Source: a virus | Taxonomy: Duplodnaviria > Caudoviricetes | Reading direction: 5' to 3' (one strand) | DNA length: 64,000 nt | Virus record (IMG/VR): IMGVR_UViG_3300042356_001602 | Part shown: piece after piece, positions 6,199 to 36,853 of the stretch | How positions within the stretch are numbered: position 1 is the first letter of the stretch | Layout of the letters: each line of letters begins with the position of its first letter | Notes under the pieces: model-generated | Told to the model about the DNA's origin: nothing | The model's database searches: none | The model's input: the letters and a program-made list of their open reading frames with translations, nothing else | Translations under genes and position numbers: made by a program

Positions 6199-6549
6199 TT
6201 ATCTATAGAATATATTTAATATAGAATCAATTATTTCTTGAGACACAGATTGTGAATCTTCGCCTACAACTAAAGCATCACCATAAATTGTAGAGTCTTG
6301 ATATATATTAGTATAAGTTCTATAAAGAACAGTTGCATCATGATTAACTTTAGGGTAAATCCCAAAGTTACTATATGATAGAATAATGAATACTTGATCA
6401 GTAATCTTTATTTTGTATGTAGGTTGATTTTGAAAAATGTAATCGATAACTTTATCGTATGCTTCCAATATAATGCAAGCACTTCCTTGATAAGGAATAT
6501 ATAAAGTTTCTATTTTGTTTTCAAGATCAAGCTCTTTTAAAAGAGTCAA
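6199..6549 (-). CDS. hypothetical protein (DUF3846-like C-terminal motif)
   Basis: N..AT.LY......D.TIYGDALVVG motif; TTG start after the S8 stop is inferred. Confidence 0.55.
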   Translation of the reverse strand: MTLLKELDLENKIETLYIPYQGSACIILEAYDKVIDYIFQNQPTYKIKITDQVFIILSYSNFGIYPKVNHDATVLYRTYTNIYQDSTIYGDALVVGEDSQSVSQEIIDSILNIFYR

Positions 6550-8181: not shown

Positions 8182-9855
8182 TTAAAAGTTTTTCTTACTA
8201 GATATTTTATTCTGTAGCCATTTAGGCTTAGGATTGTTTTCGTAGTAACGAGAGATGATTTGACTAGCCATGCCCTTGGTCATGTCAGTGGTAATAGGTA
8301 TACCTATACGCTTTAATAGTTTTTGTTGAGAGTCAGTTGGGGAATCTGCTCTCCATGCTGCTGAAGAGTCAAGGAGAGCTACAGATGAAGCTCTGTTGGA
8401 TTGTATCCATTTATCAGAGCGAGCAAAAGCTTCACGCATATCAGGAGCAATACCAAGAACTCTAGTAGATTTCTGAACGTTATCATGTAGAGTTACATTC
8501 CAACGTCCAAGTGTATCGCACTTAATACGCATAGATTCAGAATTGTTTAAGCCAAGATGAAATTCATCTTCAGCTATTTCTGCCCAAACTAATTTAGAAT
8601 ATTCTAAGACAACAGGGTTAGGAGGTGGTGGCATAAATAGATTAATACGAGTATAAGCTACTTGTATATCATCAGGATTAAGAACACGAACAGCTTCGCC
8701 TGGACAATAAGATTCAAGTTCTTCAAACTTTTCAGCTACGTCTGTAAGGCTTTGTCCTTGTAAATCGAATTCTGGTGGCATACCCAATAGAGTAGGAAGG
8801 CCAATAGGCTTCTTTCCCTTTGTGGTGTCTGCAATGTCTATAATTATACAATGCTCTTTACCTTCAAATAAACGAGTACCTCGTCCAACTATTTGAGTAT
8901 AGAGGAGAGTGCTTCGAGTAGGTTTAGCTATTATGATGGCTTCTAATGATGGCTCGTCAAAGCCTTCAGTCAAAACGCCAACATTTACAATAACGGAAAT
9001 TTGTCCTTTTGCAAACTGAGCAAGGATGATTTCTCGTTCTTCTCGTGGGGTTGTCCCTACGATTACAGCTGTTTTTACCGACGCTTGGTTAAAGGATAAG
9101 GCCAAGTTTTGGGCGTGTCTGACGCCGGATGCGTATACAAGGGCTTTTTTATCCATTGCCAGATTGCGATAGGCAGCGACAACATGAGCATTACGCTCAG
9201 GGTTATCAATTTTTTCTTCCAATTGCGATTGACTATATTCGCCATTTTGGATCTCCACTTCTGAAATGTCGGTACTTGTTTTTACTCTATATCCTACGAG
9301 TGGTGATAACCACCCTTCTTGGATAAGATCTTGTATAGTTCTATAGTAGACTATTTCGTCAAAGACATCAATTAGTCTAGTAGAATCTGATCTTTGCGGC
9401 GTCGCAGTAACGCCCAGCAGAAAATCAGGAGAGAAGAAATCAATAATTCTTCTATAACTAGGAGCAGCAGCATGGTGAGCCTCATCTATAACTATGGATT
9501 TAAAGTAATCTTTAGGATATTGTTCTATACGAGGAGTATTGTTTCTACCCAAGGTAGCAACGCTGGCAACGACTACGTCTACTTTGCCAGCTTTACGTTC
9601 AGCTTGTTCAATCTCTACAGTGAGATTGGGATTACAATCTAGGATTTTGGACCTAGCTTGTTCTAATAACTCAGACCTATGAGCTAAGACTAGCATAGGT
9701 AAAGTATCTGGTTTAATTATAGGAAGCTGTGAAAATATAACAGTTTTTCCTGCACCAGTTGGAAGAACTACTAGTTGTTTCGTAATACCGTTATTAGCAT
9801 TAGTTACAACAGCATCGAGTGCTTCTTGTTGATATGGTCGCAGTGTAAATGTCAT
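8182..9855 (-). CDS. SF2 DExH helicase (ResIII/IRC3-like)
   Basis: LPTGAGKT, IDEAHH, TATPQR, LTEGFD, QIVGRGTR. Confidence 0.93.
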   Translation of the reverse strand: MTFTLRPYQQEALDAVVTNANNGITKQLVVLPTGAGKTVIFSQLPIIKPDTLPMLVLAHRSELLEQARSKILDCNPNLTVEIEQAERKAGKVDVVVASVATLGRNNTPRIEQYPKDYFKSIVIDEAHHAAAPSYRRIIDFFSPDFLLGVTATPQRSDSTRLIDVFDEIVYYRTIQDLIQEGWLSPLVGYRVKTSTDISEVEIQNGEYSQSQLEEKIDNPERNAHVVAAYRNLAMDKKALVYASGVRHAQNLALSFNQASVKTAVIVGTTPREEREIILAQFAKGQISVIVNVGVLTEGFDEPSLEAIIIAKPTRSTLLYTQIVGRGTRLFEGKEHCIIIDIADTTKGKKPIGLPTLLGMPPEFDLQGQSLTDVAEKFEELESYCPGEAVRVLNPDDIQVAYTRINLFMPPPPNPVVLEYSKLVWAEIAEDEFHLGLNNSESMRIKCDTLGRWNVTLHDNVQKSTRVLGIAPDMREAFARSDKWIQSNRASSVALLDSSAAWRADSPTDSQQKLLKRIGIPITTDMTKGMASQIISRYYENNPKPKWLQNKISSKKNF

Positions 9856-10792: not shown

Positions 10793-13333
10793 CTAGAACT
10801 CAGCTTTGAGTCTGCGTACAGGAGTGGGTGTTTCATTGTTTGTAAACACAATAGGTGAGAATGTTGCATGATGCTTTTGGTACTCAAGCACGTCATCAAA
10901 GACGTGTTCGGTTCCATCAGGATCTGTATACAGCCACTTATTGTGCCTAAAAGTTTTGATCTTATACTCATTGTCTTCGTATTGCATGATTACACGCTTA
11001 CCAATGCCATAGTGAATGAGAGCTTTCTCAAGATATGGATATACGGTGCGGTTCATTACAATCTGGTCAGACAATTTACCTGAACTAGTAGGCTCTTTGA
11101 TGCTAGAGCAGTACAAAGCAAGTACGAAGTCATGTTGGTCTTCAATGCGTTCAAATGAATTGATTGCATCAACGACAAACTTGTACAAGTAGTCCCATTC
11201 TTCACGCTTTATAGAACCAACAGTTTGAACGAATTCGTTACTGTTAGTATTATAAATGTTCATACGGAACTTACGCAATATGGGACCAGCGTGAAAGTAC
11301 AAGCGTTCAGCAAGAGCCTGAATAGTTGGAGACAATTCAATATTCTCTTGAGAGTACTTGGTAACACGCTCTACATACAGTGCATTGTAATGCTTGCAAA
11401 GGTTATTCAAATGAGTAAGGGTACCTTCGTAGGTTTCTACTTCAGGATGCTTACGGGAAAGATTCTTAAAGCGACCGAACCATAGATCATGATCTATTGG
11501 GCGACCGGAATTAAGAACCTCTTGAATAATAGTTTCTGCTTCAGCATCAATTGCTTGACGATCACGAGGATCTGAAGTCTGAGTACATCCGTCAATAGCA
11601 GATTCTAAAGAACATACTTGAACTGGACGATGTTTTCCTAGTGTGGAAGAGTGGAGCATTGAGCCGTTTACGAAACGACCAACGTTACCACCCATCATCG
11701 CAGTATCAATGTCTGCCATAACATCTGCTACAGAATAATTTTGCTCAGTCTTACGAAGAGGTAAAGGGTTGTGATCACTCGGCAAACCAAGATATCTAAC
11801 CTGATTGTTGCGGATTGCATGAGACAATCGAACTGGCCAGTTACGACCATTTACTTCAGGAAAGCTAATCACTTCGCCATTAGCCTTAGACCAAGTAGGA
11901 TACCACTCGTCTTCAACATAGCTAAGAATGGTGTATTCACCATAGCCATTAGGAGAACGAGCGATAATAACTACTTTTTCGTTATCACGAGTACCACCGG
12001 TAAGTGTACGGTAGAACAACTTAAAGAAGTCGTCTTGATCATGACCGCCATGGCTCTCGTACATCTCGAGCCAGTCAAAGTCATTAACAACATGAACACC
12101 GATATCATTGATTCGACGAATTGTACCTTCGTCAACTTCAATGTTCCATCCGCCCATACGTGCTAACGATTCAGGAATAACCTGCTCGTAAACACTGCAC
12201 GGAATAGGAATACGGTTTTCAAGTGGCTTTGCGTGGGAGATAGCAAGAGTCTTAAACAACCACGGAGAATCCGTAATTGATAATCCCATACTGGCCCAAC
12301 GATAGCCAACGTATCCGATGCGAGCTTGAGCTTCTACATCTTCTACTTCTTTATTGTCACGTGAGAACTGACGAACAAAGTATGACTTCCAGTTGGTGAG
12401 AAGACGTCCATTGACTGCGTCTTGGAACATCTTTTCATAGTCTTCTTTGAGCCACATTTCCATGTCAGCTTTGCGGAACAACTTTGGAAAGTTGATAACA
12501 GTTTGATCATCAGTAACTACACGGGACTTAGGTCCTTGAGGTTCTGCGATAAGACGAAATCCACCAGAGTAAGCAAGTTCTTTCTTAACGTTGTCACGTG
12601 TTGAAAGAATGTCAACACCTTCTGGAAGATTATCTGAAACGATAAAGTTACCTTTAATCATTCCATCTTCGAAAAGGAGTCTACCATTAAATACTCGAGA
12701 TTCAATTAAGAATCTGCGAAGATCTGCTTGGATCTTAGGATCGTAGTATACGTCGTTTTCATCTGCTGAATTAACGGAGTCATAGATAGGCATTGCCTCT
12801 ACTGCCTTACGAATAAGGCGTGAAGAAACAATGAAGCCACCATCGAGAAGTCGAGGTGTAGCTTTTTCTACCCATTCTGCCCAACCAGATTCAAAGTTGA
12901 AACGTGTATAGTCAGTAGGGTTAACCCATTGAATATTGACGTTGTCAAAGTGAGCATTGATTAGAGCTGCACGGTGTACAGTCTTGAGACGCTTAGAGGT
13001 CTTGCCTCCACCTTTGACTTTGTATCCAGACTTAGTAAGTGCTGAAAGCCATCCGTTGGATCCTTTGAGGGAAACGGCAACAATCTTGTTTTTATCAACC
13101 AAGGCATACTCGACTGAAGGGTGAGAAATAATCTTCTCAACTTCAGCACGATCAAATACATTGGTAGGTATAGGCATTGTTGCTACACGAAACTCGGAAG
13201 CATCTACGTTTTCCATCAGCTCACGCATGATGCCGATGTCATAGAATCCGATTTGATAGTCGTTGGTAGAACGCAATGGAGCATCTTTAAATGCTTTCAT
13301 GCGTACTGTTGGTCGGTATGTATTAAAGTTCAT
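10793..13333 (-). CDS. single-subunit two-barrel RNA polymerase-like protein (YonO/RdRP-like), paralog B
   Basis: LLDGGFIVS, FNGR...MIKG (DPBB-B pattern); RIPIPCS, HGGHDQDD, IARSPNGYGEY (DPBB-A pattern); colinear with 25774..28152. Confidence 0.75.
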   Translation of the reverse strand: MNFNTYRPTVRMKAFKDAPLRSTNDYQIGFYDIGIMRELMENVDASEFRVATMPIPTNVFDRAEVEKIISHPSVEYALVDKNKIVAVSLKGSNGWLSALTKSGYKVKGGGKTSKRLKTVHRAALINAHFDNVNIQWVNPTDYTRFNFESGWAEWVEKATPRLLDGGFIVSSRLIRKAVEAMPIYDSVNSADENDVYYDPKIQADLRRFLIESRVFNGRLLFEDGMIKGNFIVSDNLPEGVDILSTRDNVKKELAYSGGFRLIAEPQGPKSRVVTDDQTVINFPKLFRKADMEMWLKEDYEKMFQDAVNGRLLTNWKSYFVRQFSRDNKEVEDVEAQARIGYVGYRWASMGLSITDSPWLFKTLAISHAKPLENRIPIPCSVYEQVIPESLARMGGWNIEVDEGTIRRINDIGVHVVNDFDWLEMYESHGGHDQDDFFKLFYRTLTGGTRDNEKVVIIARSPNGYGEYTILSYVEDEWYPTWSKANGEVISFPEVNGRNWPVRLSHAIRNNQVRYLGLPSDHNPLPLRKTEQNYSVADVMADIDTAMMGGNVGRFVNGSMLHSSTLGKHRPVQVCSLESAIDGCTQTSDPRDRQAIDAEAETIIQEVLNSGRPIDHDLWFGRFKNLSRKHPEVETYEGTLTHLNNLCKHYNALYVERVTKYSQENIELSPTIQALAERLYFHAGPILRKFRMNIYNTNSNEFVQTVGSIKREEWDYLYKFVVDAINSFERIEDQHDFVLALYCSSIKEPTSSGKLSDQIVMNRTVYPYLEKALIHYGIGKRVIMQYEDNEYKIKTFRHNKWLYTDPDGTEHVFDDVLEYQKHHATFSPIVFTNNETPTPVRRLKAEF

Positions 13334-13360: not shown

Positions 13361-13371
13361 CCCTTCTTTTT
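13361..13371 (-). promoter_or_regulatory. class II upstream motif AAAAAGAAGGG (copy before RNAP B)
   Basis: One of six copies (about 13361, 17148, 23335, 23714, 25085, 25664), each shortly upstream of a minus-strand start codon. Confidence 0.6.
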
Positions 13372-13801: not shown

Positions 13802-14053
13802 TTATTTTGCAGGTACCAGGAAGTTGTTAGATTTATTTCTACGAATAACAGTTCTTGCACGAATTGATAGACCTCCCCATACACCATGATTAATGTTATT
13901 TTCAATAGCATATAAAGCACATGGTGTTTTTACGGGGCAGTCTTGACAAAATGCAATAGCCTTATTAGTCCCTGATACATGATCAGAGAAAAAGAAGTTA
14001 GTATCTTTAATTGTTTTGCATTTAGCAAATCGCATAAAGGATTCTGAAATCAT
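13802..14053 (-). CDS. whiB: WhiB-family transcription factor (second copy)
   Basis: C...NFFF...CQDCPVKTPC...GVWGGLSIRAR. Confidence 0.92.
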   Translation of the reverse strand: MISESFMRFAKCKTIKDTNFFFSDHVSGTNKAIAFCQDCPVKTPCALYAIENNINHGVWGGLSIRARTVIRRNKSNNFLVPAK

Positions 14054-17124: not shown

Positions 17125-17186
17125 AAGTTACCTTCTGTGTAGTGTTCCCTTCTTTTTTGTACGAACAAAAAAAGTGGATACATAGC

Positions 17187-23262: not shown

Positions 23263-23360
23263 ATTACTGTCTCCTTAGTTGTATAATTTTGAATAATTGT
23301 GAATAATTGTGCAAAAAGGTATATCTGAGGTATACCCTTCTTTTTGCTTATACCGCAGTG

Positions 23361-23699: not shown

Positions 23700-23904
23700 T
23701 TACTGTTTCCTTTCCCTTCTTTTTTGTATTTGCTGTATTAAAAAGCGCTTTAGAAGTTAGAGAGAAAAAACAAATACAATGATCAGTCACGCCACTTCTG
23801 TGGAATGTACTGACCATTGTTATTGCTTCTGTTTGAGTTAATGATTATATAAATGGTGGCTAAGAATGCGTAATTGCATACAAAGCCAAGCATGAACATT
23901 GCCA

Positions 23905-25050: not shown

Positions 25051-25211
25051 GGTATTCCTCCTTAGGAATATTTTTGGGCTTACACCCTTCTTTTTTGACA
25101 GAATTCTCTTTTGTATGCACTAGTTGAAGGACTAGTCAGAAAAAGGGGGAAGTCCCAGCAGACCCGCACTTGTGATGCGAATCTACTGGGACAGGGGGAC
25201 TTGACCAGCCG

Positions 25212-25625: not shown

Positions 25626-25773
25626 TGTGGGACCTCCTAAGGTCGTTATGGATGAGGTAATCACCCTTCTTTTTAGACAGAAAGTCCAGTTTAGAAGAGT
25701 ATCTTGGCATGCTATAGATTAAACATGCACTAAAGAGATTTTAGAAGCAATATAATATTTGCTCCTATAGTCT

Positions 25774-28152
25774 CTAGATTGAGTTGAGTGCTCGGATGAA
25801 CCAATCAATTGGCTGCTTGGGGCTCTTTGCACTGAACGTGTACAACCACTGGTCGTGATTGGCCTTCGGATACTGACGCTTGGCAACATATGACTGATAA
25901 GCCAGTGCCAGTATCTTGCGGTTCATGTAGTCGACACCCTTGTCTGGGTTGTCATCAATACGAGTGAACAGATCACATAGGTAATCTACCCATGCTTCTG
26001 CAGTCATGATGCGACGCTTAACACTGATCTTTTGGTGTTCTAGAGCTGCATTGAGCAGTTCTTCTTCTGTCCACTGGATATTGAACAGCACCTCTGGCTC
26101 AACAAGCGTTGCATTCAGGTGGTCTGACATTTCGGAAACAGTGGTTCGCACCAGTATTTCTCGTTGGATATGCATCTGGCACCAAGGAGACTCTTCAACC
26201 GTAGTGGTTTCAAGGTCCTTAGCATGCACCTCTGGCATACGAGTTACCATCCAGAACATATCCATCTTGGTACCGTTAAGACCATTTGTTTCACGGATTT
26301 GGCGGTATAGTTCACCAACCCATTGTGCAATGAGCTTTACGTCAGCAACAGTAGCGAGTCCCTGTTCAATGCCGTCAATGATGTCTTCGTTACGAGCAAC
26401 AGGATTCTTGATGTATTCGTTGATTAGAGCATGCCAAAGGATCTTGGGCAGTACTGCAGAACCAACTCCACCAGGGAATGCCATTGCCACTAGTCGACTA
26501 CGTCCTTCATCTCCCAGAGAATACTCAGGGTTGATCTTCAGAATAGAGCTACCAGGAAGGGTTCCGGGAACAACCAAATTGTTCTCTTCCAGGTACGAAG
26601 ATTGAGGAACAGCCTTGAACAGCTCCTCATAGTCAATGACAGGCGGGAATGCAGTATACCGATGGAATACTGGGCCATAGTTCTCGATTGGGATCATTGA
26701 CCATTCACCAAAGTCATTTGGGTTACGGAGAATGAACGCCATAAGCTTGATGTTCCCATCAGCAAAGCGAACTAGTCGGACATGGATCTTCCATGTATCG
26801 TCTAGGTCATCCCCACCATGGTTGATGTGGTTCTTCTCGAAGTACTTACCAGGTACCGCAAAGCAGTGTGTCTTCTTGTGGTAATAGCCACAGTCATTGT
26901 ACACATTCTTGAATCCGAAGATTGAGAGTGCTTCTTGAGTCATTACGTGAGTGGCATATGCCCATTCAACCGGGAACCAGTGATACTGCTTATGACGCCA
27001 TACATTGCCCATGCCTTCATTTCCTTCGTTAGCACCAAGGAATGACCGCTTCAAACCATTTACTGTCAACCAGCGAAGTGTTTGTGTTGCATTAAATGGG
27101 ATTCCAGCTTGATCAAGATCACGAACAGCCTTTTGCACAATCTCAAGCGTAGAGACAGGTCGACGGAATTCATCTTCCTCACTAGCTTGATACTGGGCAA
27201 CAGCATTGTTGTTATCTACCAAGGTAGTCATGAACTTGAATTGGTTACCTTCTGCAAGGTCGACCTTTGCTTGTTCAAGAGTACCTATTAGGCCACGAAT
27301 GACATCTTCTTGAGTATACAGACCATTTACCTTCTGGTAGATGGCCATGGTAAGGTCATCACTCTTGACAGGGATAGCCGAGTACGACGGTTCGATTGTA
27401 GCAAACTGCCAACCCTTAGTGCTGATCTCGGGCTTGATGTTGGGACCAAAGGTCTTGATATCGTACCCATCCATCATCTTATCTGGGAGGACTAGAGCAT
27501 TGCCCTTGATCAACCCATCTTTCATGAGGACTCGGATCTGAACTACTGATGTTTGACCATCAAGGATTAGTGCAATCTGTTTGTTGATCCATTCACGTGA
27601 TGCACGATGGTTACTCACAACACAGCGTATAGCAAAGCTTTGGCTGATTGCGGAGATTCCATCTACATCACTATCGATGTACCCAAGATCTAGGTGGTCG
27701 ATAGTTTGAACCTTGATGTTGCCATCGGGATCATATGTCCACATGCATGACATGCGAACAATTTCAGCCAACCGCTTGCTCATCTTCTTTGAGTTCTTGA
27801 TCACAAGACCAACCTCATCGAGTCCAGCAAGCCACGTTGTCGTACGTCCACGATGGGGCTTCACACCTTTGATCCGCACTGTGTACTGATCTGATGAGTT
27901 GCTCCAACGCAGGATTTCTGAATTGGCTAGGATTGGCATAGCTGTAGGATCCTGTGAAGGAACCACACCATGCCATTGTTTTTGGATCTTTCGCACTTCG
28001 ATCCGGTAATGATCCGGAAAGAATTGCTCAAGAAAGGCGGGCCAATAAGGACCACCATCGAACTCCTCAAGAACTTTATCATTCTCAAGGAGAGGGACCG
28101 CAGTGATGAGCCGGAACCAGCCATCATTACGTTTGATAATACCATGAAACAT
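25774..28152 (-). CDS. single-subunit two-barrel RNA polymerase-like protein (YonO/RdRP-like), paralog A
   Basis: DVDGISAIS, VQIR...LIKG (RdRP-type DG..IS/QIR/KG); NHGGDDLDD; ILRNPNDFGEW. Confidence 0.78.
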   Translation of the reverse strand: MFHGIIKRNDGWFRLITAVPLLENDKVLEEFDGGPYWPAFLEQFFPDHYRIEVRKIQKQWHGVVPSQDPTAMPILANSEILRWSNSSDQYTVRIKGVKPHRGRTTTWLAGLDEVGLVIKNSKKMSKRLAEIVRMSCMWTYDPDGNIKVQTIDHLDLGYIDSDVDGISAISQSFAIRCVVSNHRASREWINKQIALILDGQTSVVQIRVLMKDGLIKGNALVLPDKMMDGYDIKTFGPNIKPEISTKGWQFATIEPSYSAIPVKSDDLTMAIYQKVNGLYTQEDVIRGLIGTLEQAKVDLAEGNQFKFMTTLVDNNNAVAQYQASEEDEFRRPVSTLEIVQKAVRDLDQAGIPFNATQTLRWLTVNGLKRSFLGANEGNEGMGNVWRHKQYHWFPVEWAYATHVMTQEALSIFGFKNVYNDCGYYHKKTHCFAVPGKYFEKNHINHGGDDLDDTWKIHVRLVRFADGNIKLMAFILRNPNDFGEWSMIPIENYGPVFHRYTAFPPVIDYEELFKAVPQSSYLEENNLVVPGTLPGSSILKINPEYSLGDEGRSRLVAMAFPGGVGSAVLPKILWHALINEYIKNPVARNEDIIDGIEQGLATVADVKLIAQWVGELYRQIRETNGLNGTKMDMFWMVTRMPEVHAKDLETTTVEESPWCQMHIQREILVRTTVSEMSDHLNATLVEPEVLFNIQWTEEELLNAALEHQKISVKRRIMTAEAWVDYLCDLFTRIDDNPDKGVDYMNRKILALAYQSYVAKRQYPKANHDQWLYTFSAKSPKQPIDWFIRALNSI

Positions 28153-28203
28153 GATACTCTCGCTTTCTGTTGAATTGGAGGCTTCAACATAGCCTTTGTT
28201 TTG

Positions 28204-28251
28204 TGGATAGGGTCTAGATTCAAGGTCTATAGTCTATCCATAAAGAGAAAA
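28204..28251 (-). promoter_or_regulatory. class I cassette motif a (T-tract-ATGGATAG-hairpin), upstream of RNAP A
   Basis: TTTTCTCTTT-ATGGATAG...CTATCCA. Confidence 0.7.
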
Positions 28252-28316
28252 CCCCTTTCGGGGCCCTCTCTTCTTCCAACAGAATGCTGTTAGGTAGGTC
28301 TCGTTGAATCCAACGA

Positions 28317-28760
28317 CTAGAGGATGTCACCATCTTCTTTGTCGTTGTAGTCCCCAAGAAGCTTCCGGAGCTCCTCTGAGACGCCCATGGATGAACCAAG
28401 AACATCAAGAGTCTTTTCTCCGTTAGCCCACACTGAAGCTGCAAAGCCATTAATAGCTACACCATCTTTGATGTAGTTGTTCGGCTTTACTTCCGTAAGA
28501 GTGAACTCGTCACACTTCAGAACCAACTTCAACCCAGCTGCTTTTGCCTTAGCAAATGCATCAGCCATCAATTCGAGCTTGTCGGGAAAGATTGTCATCT
28601 TTACCTTGAGCGTCTTGGCTTGTGCCTCGGTTACTCCCTTTGCAGAGAGCAAGTCCGGGGTCAGCCCAATCAGGACAGTCCAGAAGACTGATCCATCCTT
28701 CATGTTATTGATAGCTGGTGCTGTGTTGACGTACAAGTACGCCTTCTTTGTTGCTGACAT
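28317..28760 (-). CDS. beta-rich protein with acidic tail (OB-fold/SSB-like?), paralog 2
   Basis: Aligns with 25212..25625; ends DKEDGDIL; start at MSATKK behind GGAGG. Confidence 0.7.
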   Translation of the reverse strand: MSATKKAYLYVNTAPAINNMKDGSVFWTVLIGLTPDLLSAKGVTEAQAKTLKVKMTIFPDKLELMADAFAKAKAAGLKLVLKCDEFTLTEVKPNNYIKDGVAINGFAASVWANGEKTLDVLGSSMGVSEELRKLLGDYNDKEDGDIL

Positions 28761-28871
28761 GACAACCTCCAAGTTGTATGTAGAACGCATATGCACGGAA
28801 TGTACATATGACTACTATTTACTCGTTTAACCTGGAGCTGTTAAGCCACAGGACCCGCACTAAGTACTGGC

Positions 28872-28907
28872 TGGATATAGATCTAGGATCTACCCATAAA
28901 AAAAAGA
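28872..28907 (-). promoter_or_regulatory. class I cassette motif b
   Basis: TCTTTTTTTT-ATGGGTAGATC-CTA-GATCTATATCCA. Confidence 0.7.
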
Positions 28908-29004
28908 TTTAAGCTCTAGGTCTAGGGTCACGTCCCAATGTATTAGCGATAGTTGCACTAGTGATAGTTTTATTATTTAATAATATGATCCATGTCATGA
29001 CGAA

Positions 29005-29283
29005 TCACTCCTCGATCTCATCAAAGAGACTTGGCTTGTGAAACCATGGGCAGACAGGAGTTGGTTGGACTTTCCTGTCATGCATGTAGATGAATTGATA
29101 GCACGCCCGGCACAAGATCAATCTGTTAGGATTGTTTGATGTAAACGTGTCATACTGGCGATCATCCAGTCCATGGCTACGACATTCATCGCATTCTTTC
29201 ATTCCGCTGTATTGCCAGGTACGACGGCTCTTTTTCTTGTTGTATGACATTTCTGTCTCCTTTTTGTTATTGTTGTTTTTCAT
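29005..29283 (-). CDS. Zn-finger (HNH-like?) hypothetical protein
   Basis: CDEC...LCRAC; start uncertain. Confidence 0.6.
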   Translation of the reverse strand: MKNNNNKKETEMSYNKKKSRRTWQYSGMKECDECRSHGLDDRQYDTFTSNNPNRLILCRACYQFIYMHDRKVQPTPVCPWFHKPSLFDEIEE

Positions 29284-29284
29284 G

Positions 29285-31159
29285 TTATTGTTCCCAGTAG
29301 TTGTTCATTGTTACTTTTAGTTCATCTTTCAAGAATTTCACAATTGGCTTACGTGTTTCTTCAGGAAGAGGCTGATTGTGCTTGCCAAGCAACTGTGTCA
29401 TGTCGCCATTTACAGGAACTTCAAGTGTACCAATATAGGCAACGTTGTTCTGAATCTCTGCATGACCGATCCATTGACCTTCAATGTCCTTGAACCCAAT
29501 GATGATTGTTTGACCATTGTAAACACGATCTGCATAAGAGCCAATGCAATTGTTCTGAGTAGCTCCCCATTCAACAAGGTCATGCGTCATTTTAGGAACA
29601 ATCATCTGAATTCCTTCTGCAATCCACTTTCCATCAAATTCTGCAAATGTGTTATAGAACTTGGTCTTGGTGAGTTTCTTGTTCTGCGTCTTGATTTTGT
29701 TGTACTCTGCTGTAACAAAGTCATGGATCTCTTCAACATTCATCCTTGATCGTGCCACGTGCTGCTTAATTGCAGTTCTGTGATTGCGACTCTTTATCGC
29801 AGTAAACATATGTGCTGCATCAACAGCGTGCTGCCCATTTAAATACAAATGACCAAGATCTTTGTCAGGTGTAAACATTTGCAAGAGATATTCATCCTTA
29901 TAACCAAAGTCCCGAAAGAATGCCTTAAAACGTTTTCTCATTACAGGACTTGAGTTATAGCGCATGTAGTTACAGACTACGTCAAGATCCAACTTCTCTA
30001 ATACTTGAGGGTTGAACCCACGCGCAATGATCAATAAGTTGATAGCTCCACGAAGATGATCCAATGTCTTGATGTTATTGATGTCACCAAAGATCTTCTT
30101 AGTTACTCCATGAGGATGCATGTAAGCCTTATTCAAGATCTTCTTAGTGGACATCTCTCCACCAATCCAGTAGATATCGCTCTGGGTAATTCCATTTGGA
30201 TACAGACCTACTGATGTACCACCATACTCAGTTGGCATGTACTTGAGGATTTTCAATACATCTTCTTCCTTAATCAACTGATCACGCAGACCGAGCATTG
30301 TGATCTCAATTGCGGCATCGGTTGGAACCAATTTCTTCCTTGCCATCTGACTGTAACCAATACCCCAAATGGGAGCACCTGTCTTCTTGTTCTTCCACAT
30401 GAGACGATAACCGTTATCAGTCTTGTTCATGAATAGAACTCCAGGCCACTTCTTCTCATAGTGCTGACCTCTGGTGTTGATGGTTGCTGTTTTGAACTCA
30501 ACAATCCAACCAGCTTTTTCTCCAGGCATTTCAGATACATACATCTGATTGATGGAGACGTAATCAAACAACTTGGAATCCTGATACTCATCTCCATATG
30601 TTTGTTCAAGTTTCAAGACCCGCTTGGTACGTGAACCTTTTTGCATGGATCGAGTTGAATATGCATGAAGTGGAGAGAAATCGTCTTCACCAGAAACGTA
30701 CACACCCAATTTGTCTACCTTCTCATTGAACTTCTTAATGGCATTTCTTGCATCCAAGTAGTTGTCATTAATAAGTGCCAATGATTCTATTACTTCAATC
30801 TTGGACAGAGGAGTTTGCTTTAAAATACGAGCTTTTGGGAAAGAACGATCATTGCCCACCACAGTCATAATGCTTAAACGATGATCCATCTCAGCTTGAT
30901 TCATTACGTGTTGGATTTGACTGATATCAAGTATCGCCTTTGCCAAGTCCATTGAATCCATTTCTGCTGGATTGATGCCTGCAAACCAGAGGTTGTATTC
31001 CTCTAGCGTGCCTGTTCTTGTTTTGATTGTGAGCTTCATGGGCTCGGTCTCCTTTTCTATCGGGAATGGGTTTGTCTCTTGTGGAGAGGGGATTGGTGGT
31101 TTTGGATAGTGGGTGGATGGGACATCAGTTTGCTCGAAACTGTTCATGGTTACCTCCAT
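29285..31159 (-). CDS. PcfJ-like domain protein
   Basis: C-terminal PK...DLVEWG..QNNCIGSY...V..G...I motif. Confidence 0.7.
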   Translation of the reverse strand: MEVTMNSFEQTDVPSTHYPKPPIPSPQETNPFPIEKETEPMKLTIKTRTGTLEEYNLWFAGINPAEMDSMDLAKAILDISQIQHVMNQAEMDHRLSIMTVVGNDRSFPKARILKQTPLSKIEVIESLALINDNYLDARNAIKKFNEKVDKLGVYVSGEDDFSPLHAYSTRSMQKGSRTKRVLKLEQTYGDEYQDSKLFDYVSINQMYVSEMPGEKAGWIVEFKTATINTRGQHYEKKWPGVLFMNKTDNGYRLMWKNKKTGAPIWGIGYSQMARKKLVPTDAAIEITMLGLRDQLIKEEDVLKILKYMPTEYGGTSVGLYPNGITQSDIYWIGGEMSTKKILNKAYMHPHGVTKKIFGDINNIKTLDHLRGAINLLIIARGFNPQVLEKLDLDVVCNYMRYNSSPVMRKRFKAFFRDFGYKDEYLLQMFTPDKDLGHLYLNGQHAVDAAHMFTAIKSRNHRTAIKQHVARSRMNVEEIHDFVTAEYNKIKTQNKKLTKTKFYNTFAEFDGKWIAEGIQMIVPKMTHDLVEWGATQNNCIGSYADRVYNGQTIIIGFKDIEGQWIGHAEIQNNVAYIGTLEVPVNGDMTQLLGKHNQPLPEETRKPIVKFLKDELKVTMNNYWEQ

Positions 31160-31185
31160 GTTGGGACCTGGCGAAGGTCTTGGTT

Positions 31186-31203
31186 CTAGCCATAAAAAAA
31201 AGA
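31186..31203 (-). promoter_or_regulatory. class I cassette motif c
   Basis: TCTTTTTTTT-ATGGCTAG. Confidence 0.65.
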
Positions 31204-31256
31204 TTTTGATATTATAAATATAGTTATAGGATTAAAGGCTAATATTACTCACACGC

Positions 31257-31688
31257 CTACCACCAAACCTTTGCATCGATTACATTCAACCCAAGGCTCT
31301 TCATCATCTCCAGGTTAGGATCTTCGTCATCCATGGCCCATTGGAGATCGTATTTCTTCATTAGCATGTTAATCATATTCTCCTTATATTTCCTGCTGCT
31401 AATACCATCCCACCTTAGAGGCCTGTGCCAGATCGAATCAACTAAATGATCAATCTCTAATTGCCGCAACTTCTTCCAAGTATTAACCTTGCAATTCTGT
31501 CCACGTGCAGTTAAGAACACAAGCTCATAGCCCATCAATTTAAAGGCTTGAAGCATAGCTATACCCCCATCTAGTGCATCTGCATTGAGCGTTTCTTGTA
31601 CCCACTGGTCATTACGCTCCATTGACCAGTTTGGTGTGACACTCACAAGAGTGCCGTCGATGTCCACAAGGACAGCTTTTGGTTTCAT
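31257..31688 (-). CDS. HAD-family phosphatase (PNKP phosphatase-like)
   Basis: VLVDIDGTL, FLTARG, AMDDE. Confidence 0.85.
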   Translation of the reverse strand: MKPKAVLVDIDGTLVSVTPNWSMERNDQWVQETLNADALDGGIAMLQAFKLMGYELVFLTARGQNCKVNTWKKLRQLEIDHLVDSIWHRPLRWDGISSRKYKENMINMLMKKYDLQWAMDDEDPNLEMMKSLGLNVIDAKVWW

Positions 31689-31700
31689 GATTTTCTCCGA

Positions 31701-31748
31701 TCACTAGGGCCTAGACTTGATGTCTAGTGACTACCCATAAAAGAAAAA
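31701..31748 (-). promoter_or_regulatory. class I cassette motif d
   Basis: Terminator hairpin then TTTTTCTTTT-ATGGGTAG followed by CTAG-rich stems. Confidence 0.7.
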
Positions 31749-31782
31749 CCTGGGAACTGACCCCAGGTATTCTTTCTCGCAT

Positions 31783-31971
31783 TTAAGCTGATCGCTTGTT
31801 GCAGAATTGACAAGGTGCATCGGTGTTGATACCTTTAACCCCATTGTCGTTCGTCCATTCAGTTGCTTGCCAACCTACTGGATTTGGTCCGTATTGCTTT
31901 TTGATTGCATTGTTCATACAATCTTTACAGGAAACTGTTACTCCCCTGTATGCATACATCCATTCTTTCAT
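31783..31971 (-). CDS. small Zn-finger protein
   Basis: CKDC...CQFC. Confidence 0.65.
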   Translation of the reverse strand: MKEWMYAYRGVTVSCKDCMNNAIKKQYGPNPVGWQATEWTNDNGVKGINTDAPCQFCNKRSA

Positions 31972-32005
31972 GATATACCCCTTTCAAAAGGTAGATTATT
32001 TTGTT

Positions 32006-32055
32006 TGAGCAGGACATCCCTTCTTGGGACCTAAGACCTACTCATAAAAAGAAAA
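32006..32055 (-). promoter_or_regulatory. class I cassette motif e
   Basis: TTTTCTTTTT-ATGAGTAGG...CCTGCTCA hairpin. Confidence 0.7.
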
Positions 32056-32151
32056 CTCCCCGAAGGGAGTCTTCTTAATCACCAATTATAATAATATGTA
32101 TAGGATGGTAAATCCTCTTATACTCAGTGGCTATTAAGCTAACTGAGTGGT

Positions 32152-32361
32152 TTAGCCTTCAGCCAAATGAGTGGTACCGACAACGGTTCCAGCAGGAGAT
32201 GACAAGAGCGTAATGTAGTGAGTCTTCGCATCAGCGAATGCTTTGCAATTTTTGTCGTCAATAGACATTGTTGACAAACGCTCCTCAGTGTACGCAAGTA
32301 GACGCACCGCATACTCTCTTGATATTTCCGTAGACATTGCTGTCTCCTTCGGGATGAACAT
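32152..32361 (-). CDS. hypothetical protein
   Basis: GGAGG ribosome-binding site. Confidence 0.65.
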   Translation of the reverse strand: MFIPKETAMSTEISREYAVRLLAYTEERLSTMSIDDKNCKAFADAKTHYITLLSSPAGTVVGTTHLAEG

Positions 32362-32407
32362 GTTTTACCTCCATGTTCTAATGCCCACATCGGAGTGATG
32401 CAGGACT

Positions 32408-32439
32408 TGGCAATCGTCAAACTACCCATAAAAGAAAAA
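32408..32439 (-). promoter_or_regulatory. class I cassette motif f
   Basis: TTTTTCTTTT-ATGGGTAGT-TTGACG-ATTGCC. Confidence 0.7.
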
Positions 32440-32524
32440 CCTCCCGAAAGAGGTTCGTCTTTTCTCATTTTATGTTTCCAGGCATGAGTGCCTAGCTGTT
32501 ACACAGCTTAGTCAGCAATTGGAG

Positions 32525-32806
32525 TTATTTGTTACACGCTGGATGCGTGCACGTAACCCCTGCTGAGACCGAACTACTTTCTGATGGGTACCACCGTCCG
32601 AAGTCTACATTCCTGATGAGAACATCAGTGAAGGTAACCTCCTTCTGGCATACCTCACAGACCTTTTTGGTTGTGGGTTTGTAAAACGTCCTGAGACGAG
32701 AATCAATCCAGGTTACCCCGTAATTGAGACAAGTCTCACACGCATACTCCCCACACCCGCAAGGAGTGTAGTTGGCCATGAAATCATCAAGTGTTAAAAA
32801 CACCAT
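32525..32806 (-). CDS. Cys-rich Zn-finger protein
   Basis: CGCG..ACETC, CEVC, CTHPAC; start moved to ATG behind AAAGGAG. Confidence 0.7.
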   Translation of the reverse strand: MVFLTLDDFMANYTPCGCGEYACETCLNYGVTWIDSRLRTFYKPTTKKVCEVCQKEVTFTDVLIRNVDFGRWYPSESSSVSAGVTCTHPACNK

Positions 32807-32872
32807 GACAATCTCCTTTCCCCATGGTTTCACCCATGGATAAAGGCGCACACCGGGTTGGCGTACGACTCG

Positions 32873-32910
32873 GCAATCACCCGTGATGATGACTACCTAT
32901 AAAAGAAAAA
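32873..32910 (-). promoter_or_regulatory. class I cassette motif g
   Basis: TTTTTCTTTT-ATAGGTAGTCA...TGATTGCC. Confidence 0.7.
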
Positions 32911-32994
32911 CCCCAGGGGATTGCCCTGAGGTTCTTCTTGACAGAGTATTTATCTACGCCCCTGACTGGCGCAAGCACAAATGGCTAAACCAAG

Positions 32995-33246
32995 TTAATT
33001 ACTTGGTAGTTGGATAAGTTGTCCTGGGTAAATGGTTGAGCCACCAATAAGCTTTACTGTCTTATTCCTGGCATTCTCCAAGTTCCCTGTACAACCATTT
33101 TCCTTGAGTACATCCCATACTGTGTCGTTTTGTTGAACGATAACAGTAACGGATGGGCAAGTGAATTGTTCGTTAGACTCAAGCACTTTGACTAATCCGA
33201 AGATTACCAAAGTAGCAAGAACCCAACGTACTATGGTTTTACGCAT
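32995..33246 (-). CDS. membrane-anchored LysM-domain protein
   Basis: N-terminal TM; VIVQQNDTVW...N.......IYPGQLIQLP. Confidence 0.8.
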   Translation of the reverse strand: MRKTIVRWVLATLVIFGLVKVLESNEQFTCPSVTVIVQQNDTVWDVLKENGCTGNLENARNKTVKLIGGSTIYPGQLIQLPSN

Positions 33247-33264
33247 GGATACTTTCCTCCTTTC

Positions 33265-33310
33265 TGAATAGATGGCCTACCAAGCCTAGAATCTATCCAT
33301 AAAAAAAAGA
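33265..33310 (-). promoter_or_regulatory. class I cassette motif h
   Basis: TCTTTTTTTT-ATGGATAGAT...ATCTATTCA. Confidence 0.7.
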
Positions 33311-33320
33311 ACGTACATAA

Positions 33321-33489
33321 GAGGGTATACCCCCGTACCCTCGTTAAAACTTTACAACACATATACTATTCACTATTACCACCCTGAAAATTTTCCCCTA
33401 TTTCTAAAGCCTATTTGTTTTATACCTGTATATAGGTTTTCTTCAAATACCGTTCGCTCTCAAAATTTTTCCCCTAAAAATTCTCCCTA
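33321..33489. repeat. strand-switch region with hairpin and three AAAATT(T/C)TCCC(C)TA repeats
   Basis: Hairpin 33321-33342; repeats at 33387, 33462, 33476. Confidence 0.55.
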
Positions 33490-33576
33490 CGAGTTGCTAA
33501 CACACAAAACCACTGATAAGTTATCTCTCAAGTCGGAAATCGCCGGCAAAACAATACAGAAAGTAAAACTACTACA

Positions 33577-33726
33577 ATGACTATAGATCCAGAGAACATG
33601 ATCCTAGAAACTACAGATACCGTAGAGACGTTCCTATCTGACTATATGAAGTCTGATTACGACTCATACAGATCAGCCTACGGTGATACCGAATACGATT
33701 CAGACAACTACGGATACGATTACTAA
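33577..33726 (+). CDS. acidic Tyr-rich peptide (49 aa)
   Basis: Manual translation MTIDPENMILE...YDSDNYGYDY. Confidence 0.55.
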   Translation: MTIDPENMILETTDTVETFLSDYMKSDYDSYRSAYGDTEYDSDNYGYDY

Positions 33727-33763
33727 TCGATCCTTATACAATAGATAGAAAGACCACTCACTA

Positions 33764-34614: not shown

Positions 34615-34876
34615 ATAAGTAGTCTTTCTACTAGGAGTTGTGTATCAATTTAAAAAAAATAAACGCCCGATTTTTTTAGGCGCGGTTTTGTTTAGGCATT
34701 GGTCTATTCACTTTAGTCATAGGGATACCATTTGAAGAAGCTAAGTTCCTCGCTCTACCCATGTTTTTCATACTTCTAGTATTAGACTGTTTTGCAGCCC
34801 CAGAAAACATCTTACCGAAATTACTACCTCTACTCATGAAATCTCCTTAGAGTTAGAATGTAGTTGTAATAGTAAT

Positions 34877-36846: not shown

Positions 36847-36853
36847 TTACTAT
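36847..36853 (+). promoter_or_regulatory. candidate late promoter element TTACTAT
   Basis: Intergenic copies at 36847, 38360, 52880 (GTACTAT), 55734, 59467, each about 27-40 nt before a start codon. Confidence 0.5.

Follow-up and report, generated by a model that had tools for sequence, protein, structure and literature searches.

The stretch of DNA analysed here (the window) comprises 64,000 nt of a tailed phage (Duplodnaviria; Caudoviricetes; IMG/VR record IMGVR_UViG_3300042356_001602), and is part of an 86-kb viral record with an estimated completeness of 42%. Between positions 28204 and 33310 its minus strand carries a row of eight gene cassettes, fenced by a T-tract and TTTATGGGTAG or a variant of it, and the most likely function of this row is that of an array of early promoters for one of the phage's own, unusual RNA polymerases. 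We find it fairly probable that the junctions between cassettes are composite terminator/promoter units for a phage-encoded polymerase, with transcription starting near the ATG/GGG of the motif, and promoter function of the motif as such is probable to a similar degree. The original prediction, made from the letters of the window, had entertained such an array of promoters for a phage polymerase; it is upheld by the invariance of the motif, its confinement to a single cluster, the polymerase gene at the end of that cluster and the lack of likeness to sigma-70 promoters.

A re-reading of positions 27900-33600 agrees with the eight minus-strand copies first noted, at 28234, 28890, 31186, 31731, 32038, 32422, 32893 and 33293, and with their variants: ATGGATAG at 28234 and 33293, ATGGGTAG at 28890, 31731 and 32422, ATGGCTAG at 31186, ATGAGTAG at 32038 and ATAGGTAG at 32893. 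The eight lie within 5.1 kb and have the consensus G-T7-TTTATRRNTAG. There are 10 matches to TTTATRRNTAG in the window against 1.4 expected, the two additional ones being AT-rich and on the opposite strand. A position weight matrix built on the eight copies scores them at 28.1-32.8 bits and the rest of the 86-kb record at no more than 14.6 bits, and the motif is by a wide margin the most over-represented intergenic word of the genome. Five of the eight copies adjoin a GC hairpin at a gene 3' end, which together with the T-tract has the make-up of an intrinsic terminator; the copies at 33293, 31186 and 28890 do not, yet they keep the tract. A strong ribosome-binding site (RBS) follows each copy and then usually one gene, two genes being found only after 31186. 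The tetranucleotide CTAG, which had seemed conspicuous nearby, is indeed about 3.3 times more frequent in the leaders (10.8 per kb) than genome-wide (3.2 per kb).

The last cassette encodes RNAP A (25774-28152, minus strand), a protein of 792 aa with many metagenomic homologues and no sequence match in Pfam, PHROG or PDB. Its AlphaFold model, made from 32 homologues, has a pLDDT of 87.6, and the top Foldseek matches of the model are QDE-1 (E 4e-7), plant RDR2 and the P23-45-type phage polymerase gp64; because of these matches, RNAP A is, as modelled, a single-chain two-barrel RNA polymerase of the QDE-1/YonO type. Its invariant loop reads GG-x-D-x-DD. RNAP B, a protein of 846 aa encoded at 10793-13333, is a paralogue. 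A search with the RNAP A profile in two complete relative genomes, G001 (210 kb) and G002 (202 kb), brought up a third homologue, a large open reading frame (ORF) in the late block between giant ORFs of more than 1900 and more than 2500 aa. In G001 it lies at L022:5906-9976 on the plus strand, split into ORFs of 1356 and 412 aa, and in G002 at about 164790-168891 on the minus strand. Members of this family are typically ~1750 aa long, share an invariant LGGFDLDDKG...RQP motif and match RNAP A in hhalign with a probability of 93% (E 3e-7) over 252 columns that cover both barrel signatures; judged from these profiles, the protein is a candidate virion polymerase. Phage-encoded polymerases are hence indicated by the model for RNAP A, by paralogy for RNAP B and by the profile match for the third homologue. 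A 1224-aa late protein was also considered as a polymerase and rejected, having no similarity to the RNAP A profile. A search for T7-like polymerases (PF00940) gave no match, and control genomes were likewise unmatched.

The relatives of this phage come from lake-water metagenomes. Each of the two complete genomes has one cluster of the motif, of 20 copies in 10.7 kb and 11 copies in 7.7 kb respectively, and every copy is on the gene strand, which is a promoter-type distribution. The motif also stands upstream of the polymerase gene at loci where the RNAP A homologue is 94-95% or 56% identical. In every examined array that carries the motif, RNAP A is the last gene, and the final copy is 92-94 nt from its start (window and L009-L012). 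Over 59 distinct units from five phages, on which all unit statistics are based, positions 0-4 (TTTAT) and 8-10 (TAG) are invariant and the G-T7 block is nearly so, whereas the sequences of the upstream hairpins are not conserved. A perfect GC hairpin directly precedes the motif in 46 of the 59; about 13 lack a perfect adjacent hairpin, several of these lack any, and the motif is retained. The hairpin-less units, which include the first unit of the G002 array, keep both T-tract and motif. Beyond these, 27 loci from more distant lineages retain the GC hairpin, the T-tract, five bases, the TAG and the leader hairpin, the five bases before TAG reading ATGGG, ATGRC, GRGGA or A-NNN-A according to lineage; the most distant lineages have unrelated repeats instead. 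ATGGG, present in three separate clades, is probably the ancestral form. On the RNAP A tree the altered motifs group in a single clade. A promoter that co-evolves with a phage-encoded reader would give this pattern, but vertical descent alone predicts the same, and the match between motif variant and tree does not identify which of the polymerases reads the motif.

Because 46 of the 59 units directly follow a GC hairpin terminator, each downstream gene needs a start signal of its own. No further conserved element was found between terminator and RBS in the 59 units, and with terminators before nearly all of them this leaves the motif as the sole candidate for the signal. A sigma-70-type promoter was rejected: there is no -35 element and no TAnnnT hexamer, the sixth position of TATGGG is never T, and sigma-70-like sites are not enriched. 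Since the leader helices begin inside the motif, its 3' half is presumably transcribed. We infer a start at or beside the ATG/GGG, at A3-G5 of TTTATGGG, because the helices begin in the motif, because a second class of intergenic motifs in these phages ends in GGG, and because the phiKZ late promoter is T(-3)ATG(+1) (PMC7598289).

The leader hairpin has the motif's GGTAG as its 5' arm. It had been claimed that the 3' arm of this stem changes with the motif, and across relatives the variable motif bases do change together with it, giving the arm pairs TGGCTAG/CTGGCCA, TGGATAG/CTATCCA, TGAGTAGG/CCTGCTCA and TAGGTAGT/GCTACTTA. In the window, six of the eight copies have an ungapped helix of 7-10 bp that contains the motif GTAG; none was found at 31731, nor at 31186, where pairing had already been described as weak. 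An explicit helix search recovered a GTAG-containing helix of at least 7 bp in 60% of units versus 22% of shuffles, and the 5' arm begins at motif positions 4-7 in all units but one. Leaders were also folded from the A of ATGG onward, with shuffled downstream sequence and the antisense strand as controls. The mean minimum free energy (MFE) was -14.9 kcal/mol for the sense strand, -11.6 for the antisense strand and -10.4 for the shuffles, and the sense fold was more stable than the antisense one in 33 of 43 units (Wilcoxon p = 2.6e-4). The clearest covariation is in a subfamily of 14 leaders with two hairpins (class I), in which 98% of cells are paired, compared with 28-47% with slid partners; double-sided changes occur at 6 of 15 pairs, many pairs are sense-strand G:U, and the covariation score was reached by 0 of 500 shuffles. 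The leader structure is real, and it is of the RNA type rather than a template DNA hairpin, because the sense-strand G:U pairs would turn into C-A mismatches on the template strand, folding is better for the sense than for the antisense strand, and the loops range from 3 to 41 nt.

The same features dispose of the analogy that had been drawn with the hairpin promoters of N4. The two systems are alike in having few early promoters, an injected polymerase as reader (the likeliest one, in our case) and a hairpin, but N4 hairpins have a 5-7 bp stem and a 3-nt loop, form in the template DNA strand and lie upstream of +1, whereas in the array the loops vary widely, sense-strand G:U is needed, the sense strand is the more stable one, and the helix is at the presumed start or downstream of it.

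Some further properties of the leaders may be recorded here. The class-I leaders comprise two in the window (32368-32429 and 32839-32900, both minus strand) and 12 others in L019, L010 and L037. Their second hairpin, AAGTC-STGCAYC...GRTGYRSGC, is located between the motif hairpin and the RBS, covaries strongly, has no Rfam match and may be a candidate operator of an RNA-binding regulator. An Rfam search returned only three chance-level matches, far under the gathering scores. In 25 of the 59 units the ATG of the motif opens a four-codon ORF (MGRS, MDRF, MGSH and others) that closes at the fixed-distance TAG; minus-strand examples in the window are 33286-33300, 32031-32045, 31724-31738, 28883-28897 and 28227-28241. 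The excess of CTAG stems from the closing TAG of this mini-ORF. Translation as a leaderless mini-ORF was rejected as a general function, since ATA replaces ATG in three units and sister lineages carry GAGGA instead of ATGGG, and the mini-ORF is probably a by-product of the palindromic leader.

We propose the following mechanism. The GC hairpin and U-tract would end the transcript of the preceding gene, and the same T-tract, together with the invariant TTTAT-GG-TAG, would constitute a ~19-bp promoter, lacking a -35 element, that a phage-specific RNA polymerase recognises. An RNA started at the ATG/GGG would open with (A)UGGGUAG and pair at once with the downstream segment, and the resulting 5'-terminal stem-loop would probably shield the mRNA from 5'-end-dependent decay. 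The outcome would be a set of insulated early units, mostly of one gene, the last of which encodes RNAP A; this enzyme could then read the downstream ACAAAAAGAAGGG class of sites, including the one before the RNAP B gene. The likeliest reader of the array itself would be the ~1750-aa polymerase homologue of the late block, which, if injected with the DNA, would be present before any phage protein synthesis.

The junctions also appear to serve the exchange of cassettes. Phages whose RNAP A is 94-95% identical to that of the window have 4 or 20 units, as against 8 in the window, which bears out the suggestion that these genes are modular, and arrays across the relatives range from 4 to 20 units. 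Several cassettes are alike only in the ~100-bp junction and carry unrelated genes, and whole cassettes are inserted exactly between junctions. Among 117 ends of homology blocks inside arrays, 38% are no more than 15 nt from the motif, versus 5% at random. The likeness to the PeSL cassettes of T4-type phages that had been pointed out thus extends to the breakpoints, which coincide with the motif, as well as to the repetition of terminator and motif between variable ORFs. A tyrosine recombinase (PF00589) was not found in G001 or G002, the controls being matched, and a gene for a UvsX/RecA-type recombinase lies just upstream of the array. The ~30-100 bp common to all junctions could let homologous recombination add, delete and swap cassettes; by analogy with what has been proposed for T4 PeSLs (PMC4122927), such shuffling between repeated junctions would be the simplest explanation.

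Several points weigh against a promoter array read by a phage enzyme. About a quarter of the units, including 31186, have no helix containing the motif GTAG. A promoter that overlaps the preceding U-tract, with almost no specific DNA upstream, is unusual, and to our knowledge two-barrel single-chain polymerases are not known to stop at intrinsic terminators. The sequence is listed only in lake-water DNA metagenomes, with no RNA run among the listed records. The third polymerase is assigned from its profile-profile match and invariant motifs: a model of its core (pLDDT 73.5) had no Foldseek matches, and VIA-align aligned only a C-terminal helical stretch. The reader, finally, may be RNAP A, RNAP B, the third homologue or the host enzyme.

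The last of these possibilities, that the motif is an unusual promoter for host RNA polymerase, acting alone or with a phage-made specificity factor, is quite unlikely. It would agree with the use of the host enzyme for the early genes of most phages, with the phage's own WhiB gene and with intrinsic terminators as signals for a host-type enzyme; however, the motif lacks a -35 element, none of its hexamers ends in the T that is conserved as the final base of -10 elements, a search of the complete relatives for a Sigma70_r2 gene was negative, and the specificity bases differ between phage lineages. RNA processing is another, unlikely, explanation. One long precursor, started at a promoter upstream of the array, would be cut by a sequence-specific endoribonuclease in the single-stranded U-tract/AUGGGUAG between hairpins, so that in every mRNA the apparent terminator would remain as a protective 3' hairpin and the leader as a 5' hairpin. 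Such a scheme would suit a conserved segment placed between two stem-loops in most units and an RNA-like structure with sense-strand G:U, and polymerases without a flap domain might read through hairpin terminators (discussed in PMC5467207). The invariance of 8 of 11 positions in 59 units, with a fixed T-tract, is nevertheless more promoter-like than RNase-site-like; the full motif is carried by units without an upstream hairpin and by the first unit of an array; and a separate conserved promoter upstream of the array was not found.

The motif could instead complete a sequence-specific terminator for a phage two-barrel polymerase, composed of hairpin, U-tract and downstream ATGGGTAG box. The pre-early region of P23-45 offers a parallel, with seven termination sites that share a 26-nt motif, taken as the sign of an unusual termination mechanism of the virion polymerase, and our motif does adjoin a hairpin and U-tract in most units. 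We judge this very unlikely, since units without a perfect adjacent hairpin, or without any, still have the motif, the copy before RNAP A and the first G002 copy have nothing obvious to terminate, junctions that only terminate would leave the downstream genes without a start signal, and the motif bases pair within the downstream leader and would thus be transcribed with the following gene. Terminator identity accounts for the hairpin and part of the T-tract, not for ATGGGTAG. Dedicated recombination sites, either integron-like attC sites or N4-like hairpins acting in single-stranded DNA, would match the look of one-way gene cassettes in 4-20 copies with a hairpin at each boundary. This is extremely improbable: an integron attC array was rejected for want of a tyrosine integrase in G001 and G002, the hairpins are ordinary GC stem plus T-tract terminators that lack conserved core boxes, what is conserved as a core is located outside the hairpin, the variable leader loops and their dependence on sense-strand G:U do not fit, and ordinary homologous recombination between the repeated junctions suffices.

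Read as promoters of a phage polymerase, the junctions are of kinds already known, phage-polymerase early promoters and PeSL-like junctions, and the array is a variant of both. In T7 class III promoters, the initially transcribed G-rich bases are the 5' arm of the phi10 stabilising stem-loop, and the array likewise would join a phage-polymerase promoter to transcribed bases that form a 5' stem-loop arm; T7 differs in its unrelated single-subunit polymerase family and in its 23-bp promoters with a defined upstream specificity region. Sequence analysis has located the early promoters of jumbo-phage virion polymerases upstream of early operons, as AT-rich motifs of ~10 nt (PMC7598289), and in P23-45 the pre-early genes, that of a second polymerase among them, follow an AT-rich motif read by the virion polymerase (bioRxiv 10.1101/2022.12.01.518664). 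The array resembles the early promoters of phiKZ, AR9 and P23-45 gp96 in its short conserved T/A-rich motif without a -35 element, detectable by sequence, and in its confinement to a cluster of small early genes; as in P23-45, a motif precedes a phage polymerase gene, the array and the pre-early region of P23-45 each ending in such a gene, and the TATG within the array motif agrees with the phiKZ late promoter TATG(+1). Unlike those phages, the array phage has single-chain QDE-1/YonO-type enzymes, apparently three, and its motif is fused to the preceding terminator, with a transcribed part that is a covarying 5' hairpin and with starts proposed from sequence alone. The PeSLs of T4-like phages (PMC2839356, PMC4122927) also place a stem-loop terminator beside an early promoter, repeated between the small variable ORFs of a hyperplastic region, and there too the motif marks the ends of indels and replacements that distinguish close relatives. 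PeSL promoters are however sigma-70 early promoters read by the host, which the array motif does not fit, and PeSLs occur in several scattered regions, whereas the array is one contiguous block ending at a polymerase gene. YonO of SPbeta and gp66 of the crAss-like phage phi14:2 belong to the same single-chain two-barrel superfamily. The promoter sequence of YonO is undefined (PMC5467207) and the early transcripts made by gp66 have no common upstream motif (bioRxiv 10.1101/2020.03.07.982082), whereas the array phage offers a sharp candidate.

The eight units of the window are all on the minus strand. Unit 1 (33293-33311) consists of the T-tract and TTTATGGATAG, with a GC hairpin 12 nt further upstream (about 33321-33342), a leader helix TGGATAGAT/ATCTATTCA (about 33265-33299) and a gene of 83 aa without a family match (32995-33246). 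The ~450 nt upstream of it (33311-33760) have no convincing ORF on the minus strand and contain repeated AGGGGAAAAWTTT boxes; this stretch could be a candidate regulatory region or origin. Unit 2 (32893-32932) has its terminator hairpin at about 32911-32932, followed by the T-tract and TTTATAGGTAG, a class-I leader (32839-32900) with two covarying hairpins, and a Cys-rich gene product of at most 108 aa (32525-32851), for which an RBS-supported ATG lies near 32806. In unit 3 (32422-32456), the terminator hairpin (32437-32456), T-tract and TTTATGGGTAG precede the other class-I leader, again of two hairpins (32368-32429), and a gene of 69 aa (32152-32361). Unit 4 (32038-32070; hairpin 32055-32070) has TTTATGAGTAG after its T-tract, the leader helix TGAGTAGG/CCTGCTCA and a gene of 62 aa (31783-31971). 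Unit 5 (31731-31768; hairpin 31748-31768) has a T-tract, TTTATGGGTAG and a CTAG-rich leader in which no ungapped GTAG-containing helix was found and the MFE fold pairs the motif GGGT downstream across an internal loop; its gene (31257-31688) encodes a HAD/PNKP-type phosphatase of 143 aa (PF25109, E 4e-11).

Units 6 and 7 begin with AAATC before the T-tract and are without a terminator hairpin. Unit 6 (31186-31204) continues with TTTATGGCTAG, no motif-containing helix was found in it, and its two genes (29005-31159) encode a PcfJ-like protein of 624 aa (29285-31159; PF14284, E 2e-11) and a Cys-rich protein of 92 aa (29005-29283). Unit 7 (28890-28908) has TTTATGGGTAG, the leader helix GTAGATC/GATCTAT and a gene (28317-28760) of ~147 aa from the RBS-supported ATG, or a 159-aa ORF if a GTG start is used, of which paralogues are present in the arrays of relatives. 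Unit 8 (28234-28266), with its terminator hairpin at about 28252-28266, T-tract, TTTATGGATAG and leader helix TGGATAG/CTATCCA, leads into RNAP A. A megablast of the region against GenBank phages gave no match.

Between the window phage and G002, RNAP A is 56% and RNAP B 67% identical, and the large polymerase is 34% identical between G001 and G002. Core genes are better conserved (terminase 86%, UvsX 82%, portal 80%), and the array genes are the fastest evolving, at 35-49% identity. One sister lineage ends its cassettes with tandem TAAG repeats (TAAGTAAGTAAG..., at L041:4831-4870, 6238-6270 and 8231-8245), which place stops in all three frames immediately before the terminator hairpin.

Two further motif classes were seen. 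The second class, (T/C)ACAAAAAGAAGGG, has six minus-strand copies in the window (25664-25672, 25085-25093, 23714-23722, 23335-23343, 17147-17155 and 13361-13369), all downstream of RNAP A, the last being 28 nt before the start codon of RNAP B. G001 and G002 share it, and relatives whose RNAP A is only 36-47% identical have it as GAAAAAGAAGGGG; it ends in GGG directly ahead of RBSs, and probably represents middle promoters. The third is the word TTACTAT(A/T), which precedes many late (structural) genes as well as the UvsX cluster by 25-50 nt, for instance at 36847, 38360, 55734, 59467 and 60641 on the plus strand and at 34875 on the minus strand of the window. It is the top word upstream of the late genes of G001, and many of its intragenic matches are due to chance. 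Its TACTAT fits the actinobacterial TAnnnT -10 element and could be host-read. A gene for a WhiB-family transcription factor (13802-14053, minus strand; PF02467, E 1e-14) lies downstream of RNAP B. Proteins of this family bind actinobacterial sigma-A; going by family membership, the gene suggests an actinobacterial host, and the host sigma-A holoenzyme is probably used at some stage.

These classes would allow a fuller scheme, which we regard as possible though doubtful: a three-step cascade of three paralogous two-barrel polymerases, each with its own promoter class. The injected ~1750-aa enzyme would read the T-tract/ATGGGTAG array and so produce RNAP A, RNAP A would read ACAAAAAGAAGGG and produce RNAP B, and RNAP B, the host enzyme with WhiB, or both, would read late sites of the TTACTATA type. 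The scheme includes a role for the obligatory 5' hairpin, which would help minimal polymerases without lid and flap to peel the nascent RNA off the template, and it would make the five bases before TAG a natural specificity code, switched in some lineages.

Single-chain two-barrel polymerases (YonO, crAss gp66 and the relatives of QDE-1) are of wide interest as minimal relatives of the cellular enzymes, and their promoters are essentially unknown. With this array, a promoter family for QDE-1/YonO-type single-chain polymerases may be sharply defined for the first time. This phage family supplies a candidate promoter of ~19 bp in more than 100 natural copies, with natural specificity variants between lineages, and its second and third motif classes may correspond to the paralogous polymerases; recognition is testable in vitro with recombinant proteins, although none of these phages is in culture. 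Outside T4, the array is likewise a clear case of terminator/promoter junctions serving as recombination points, which yields arrays of 4-20 units of host-takeover-type genes, in abundant freshwater jumbo phages whose host is probably actinobacterial.

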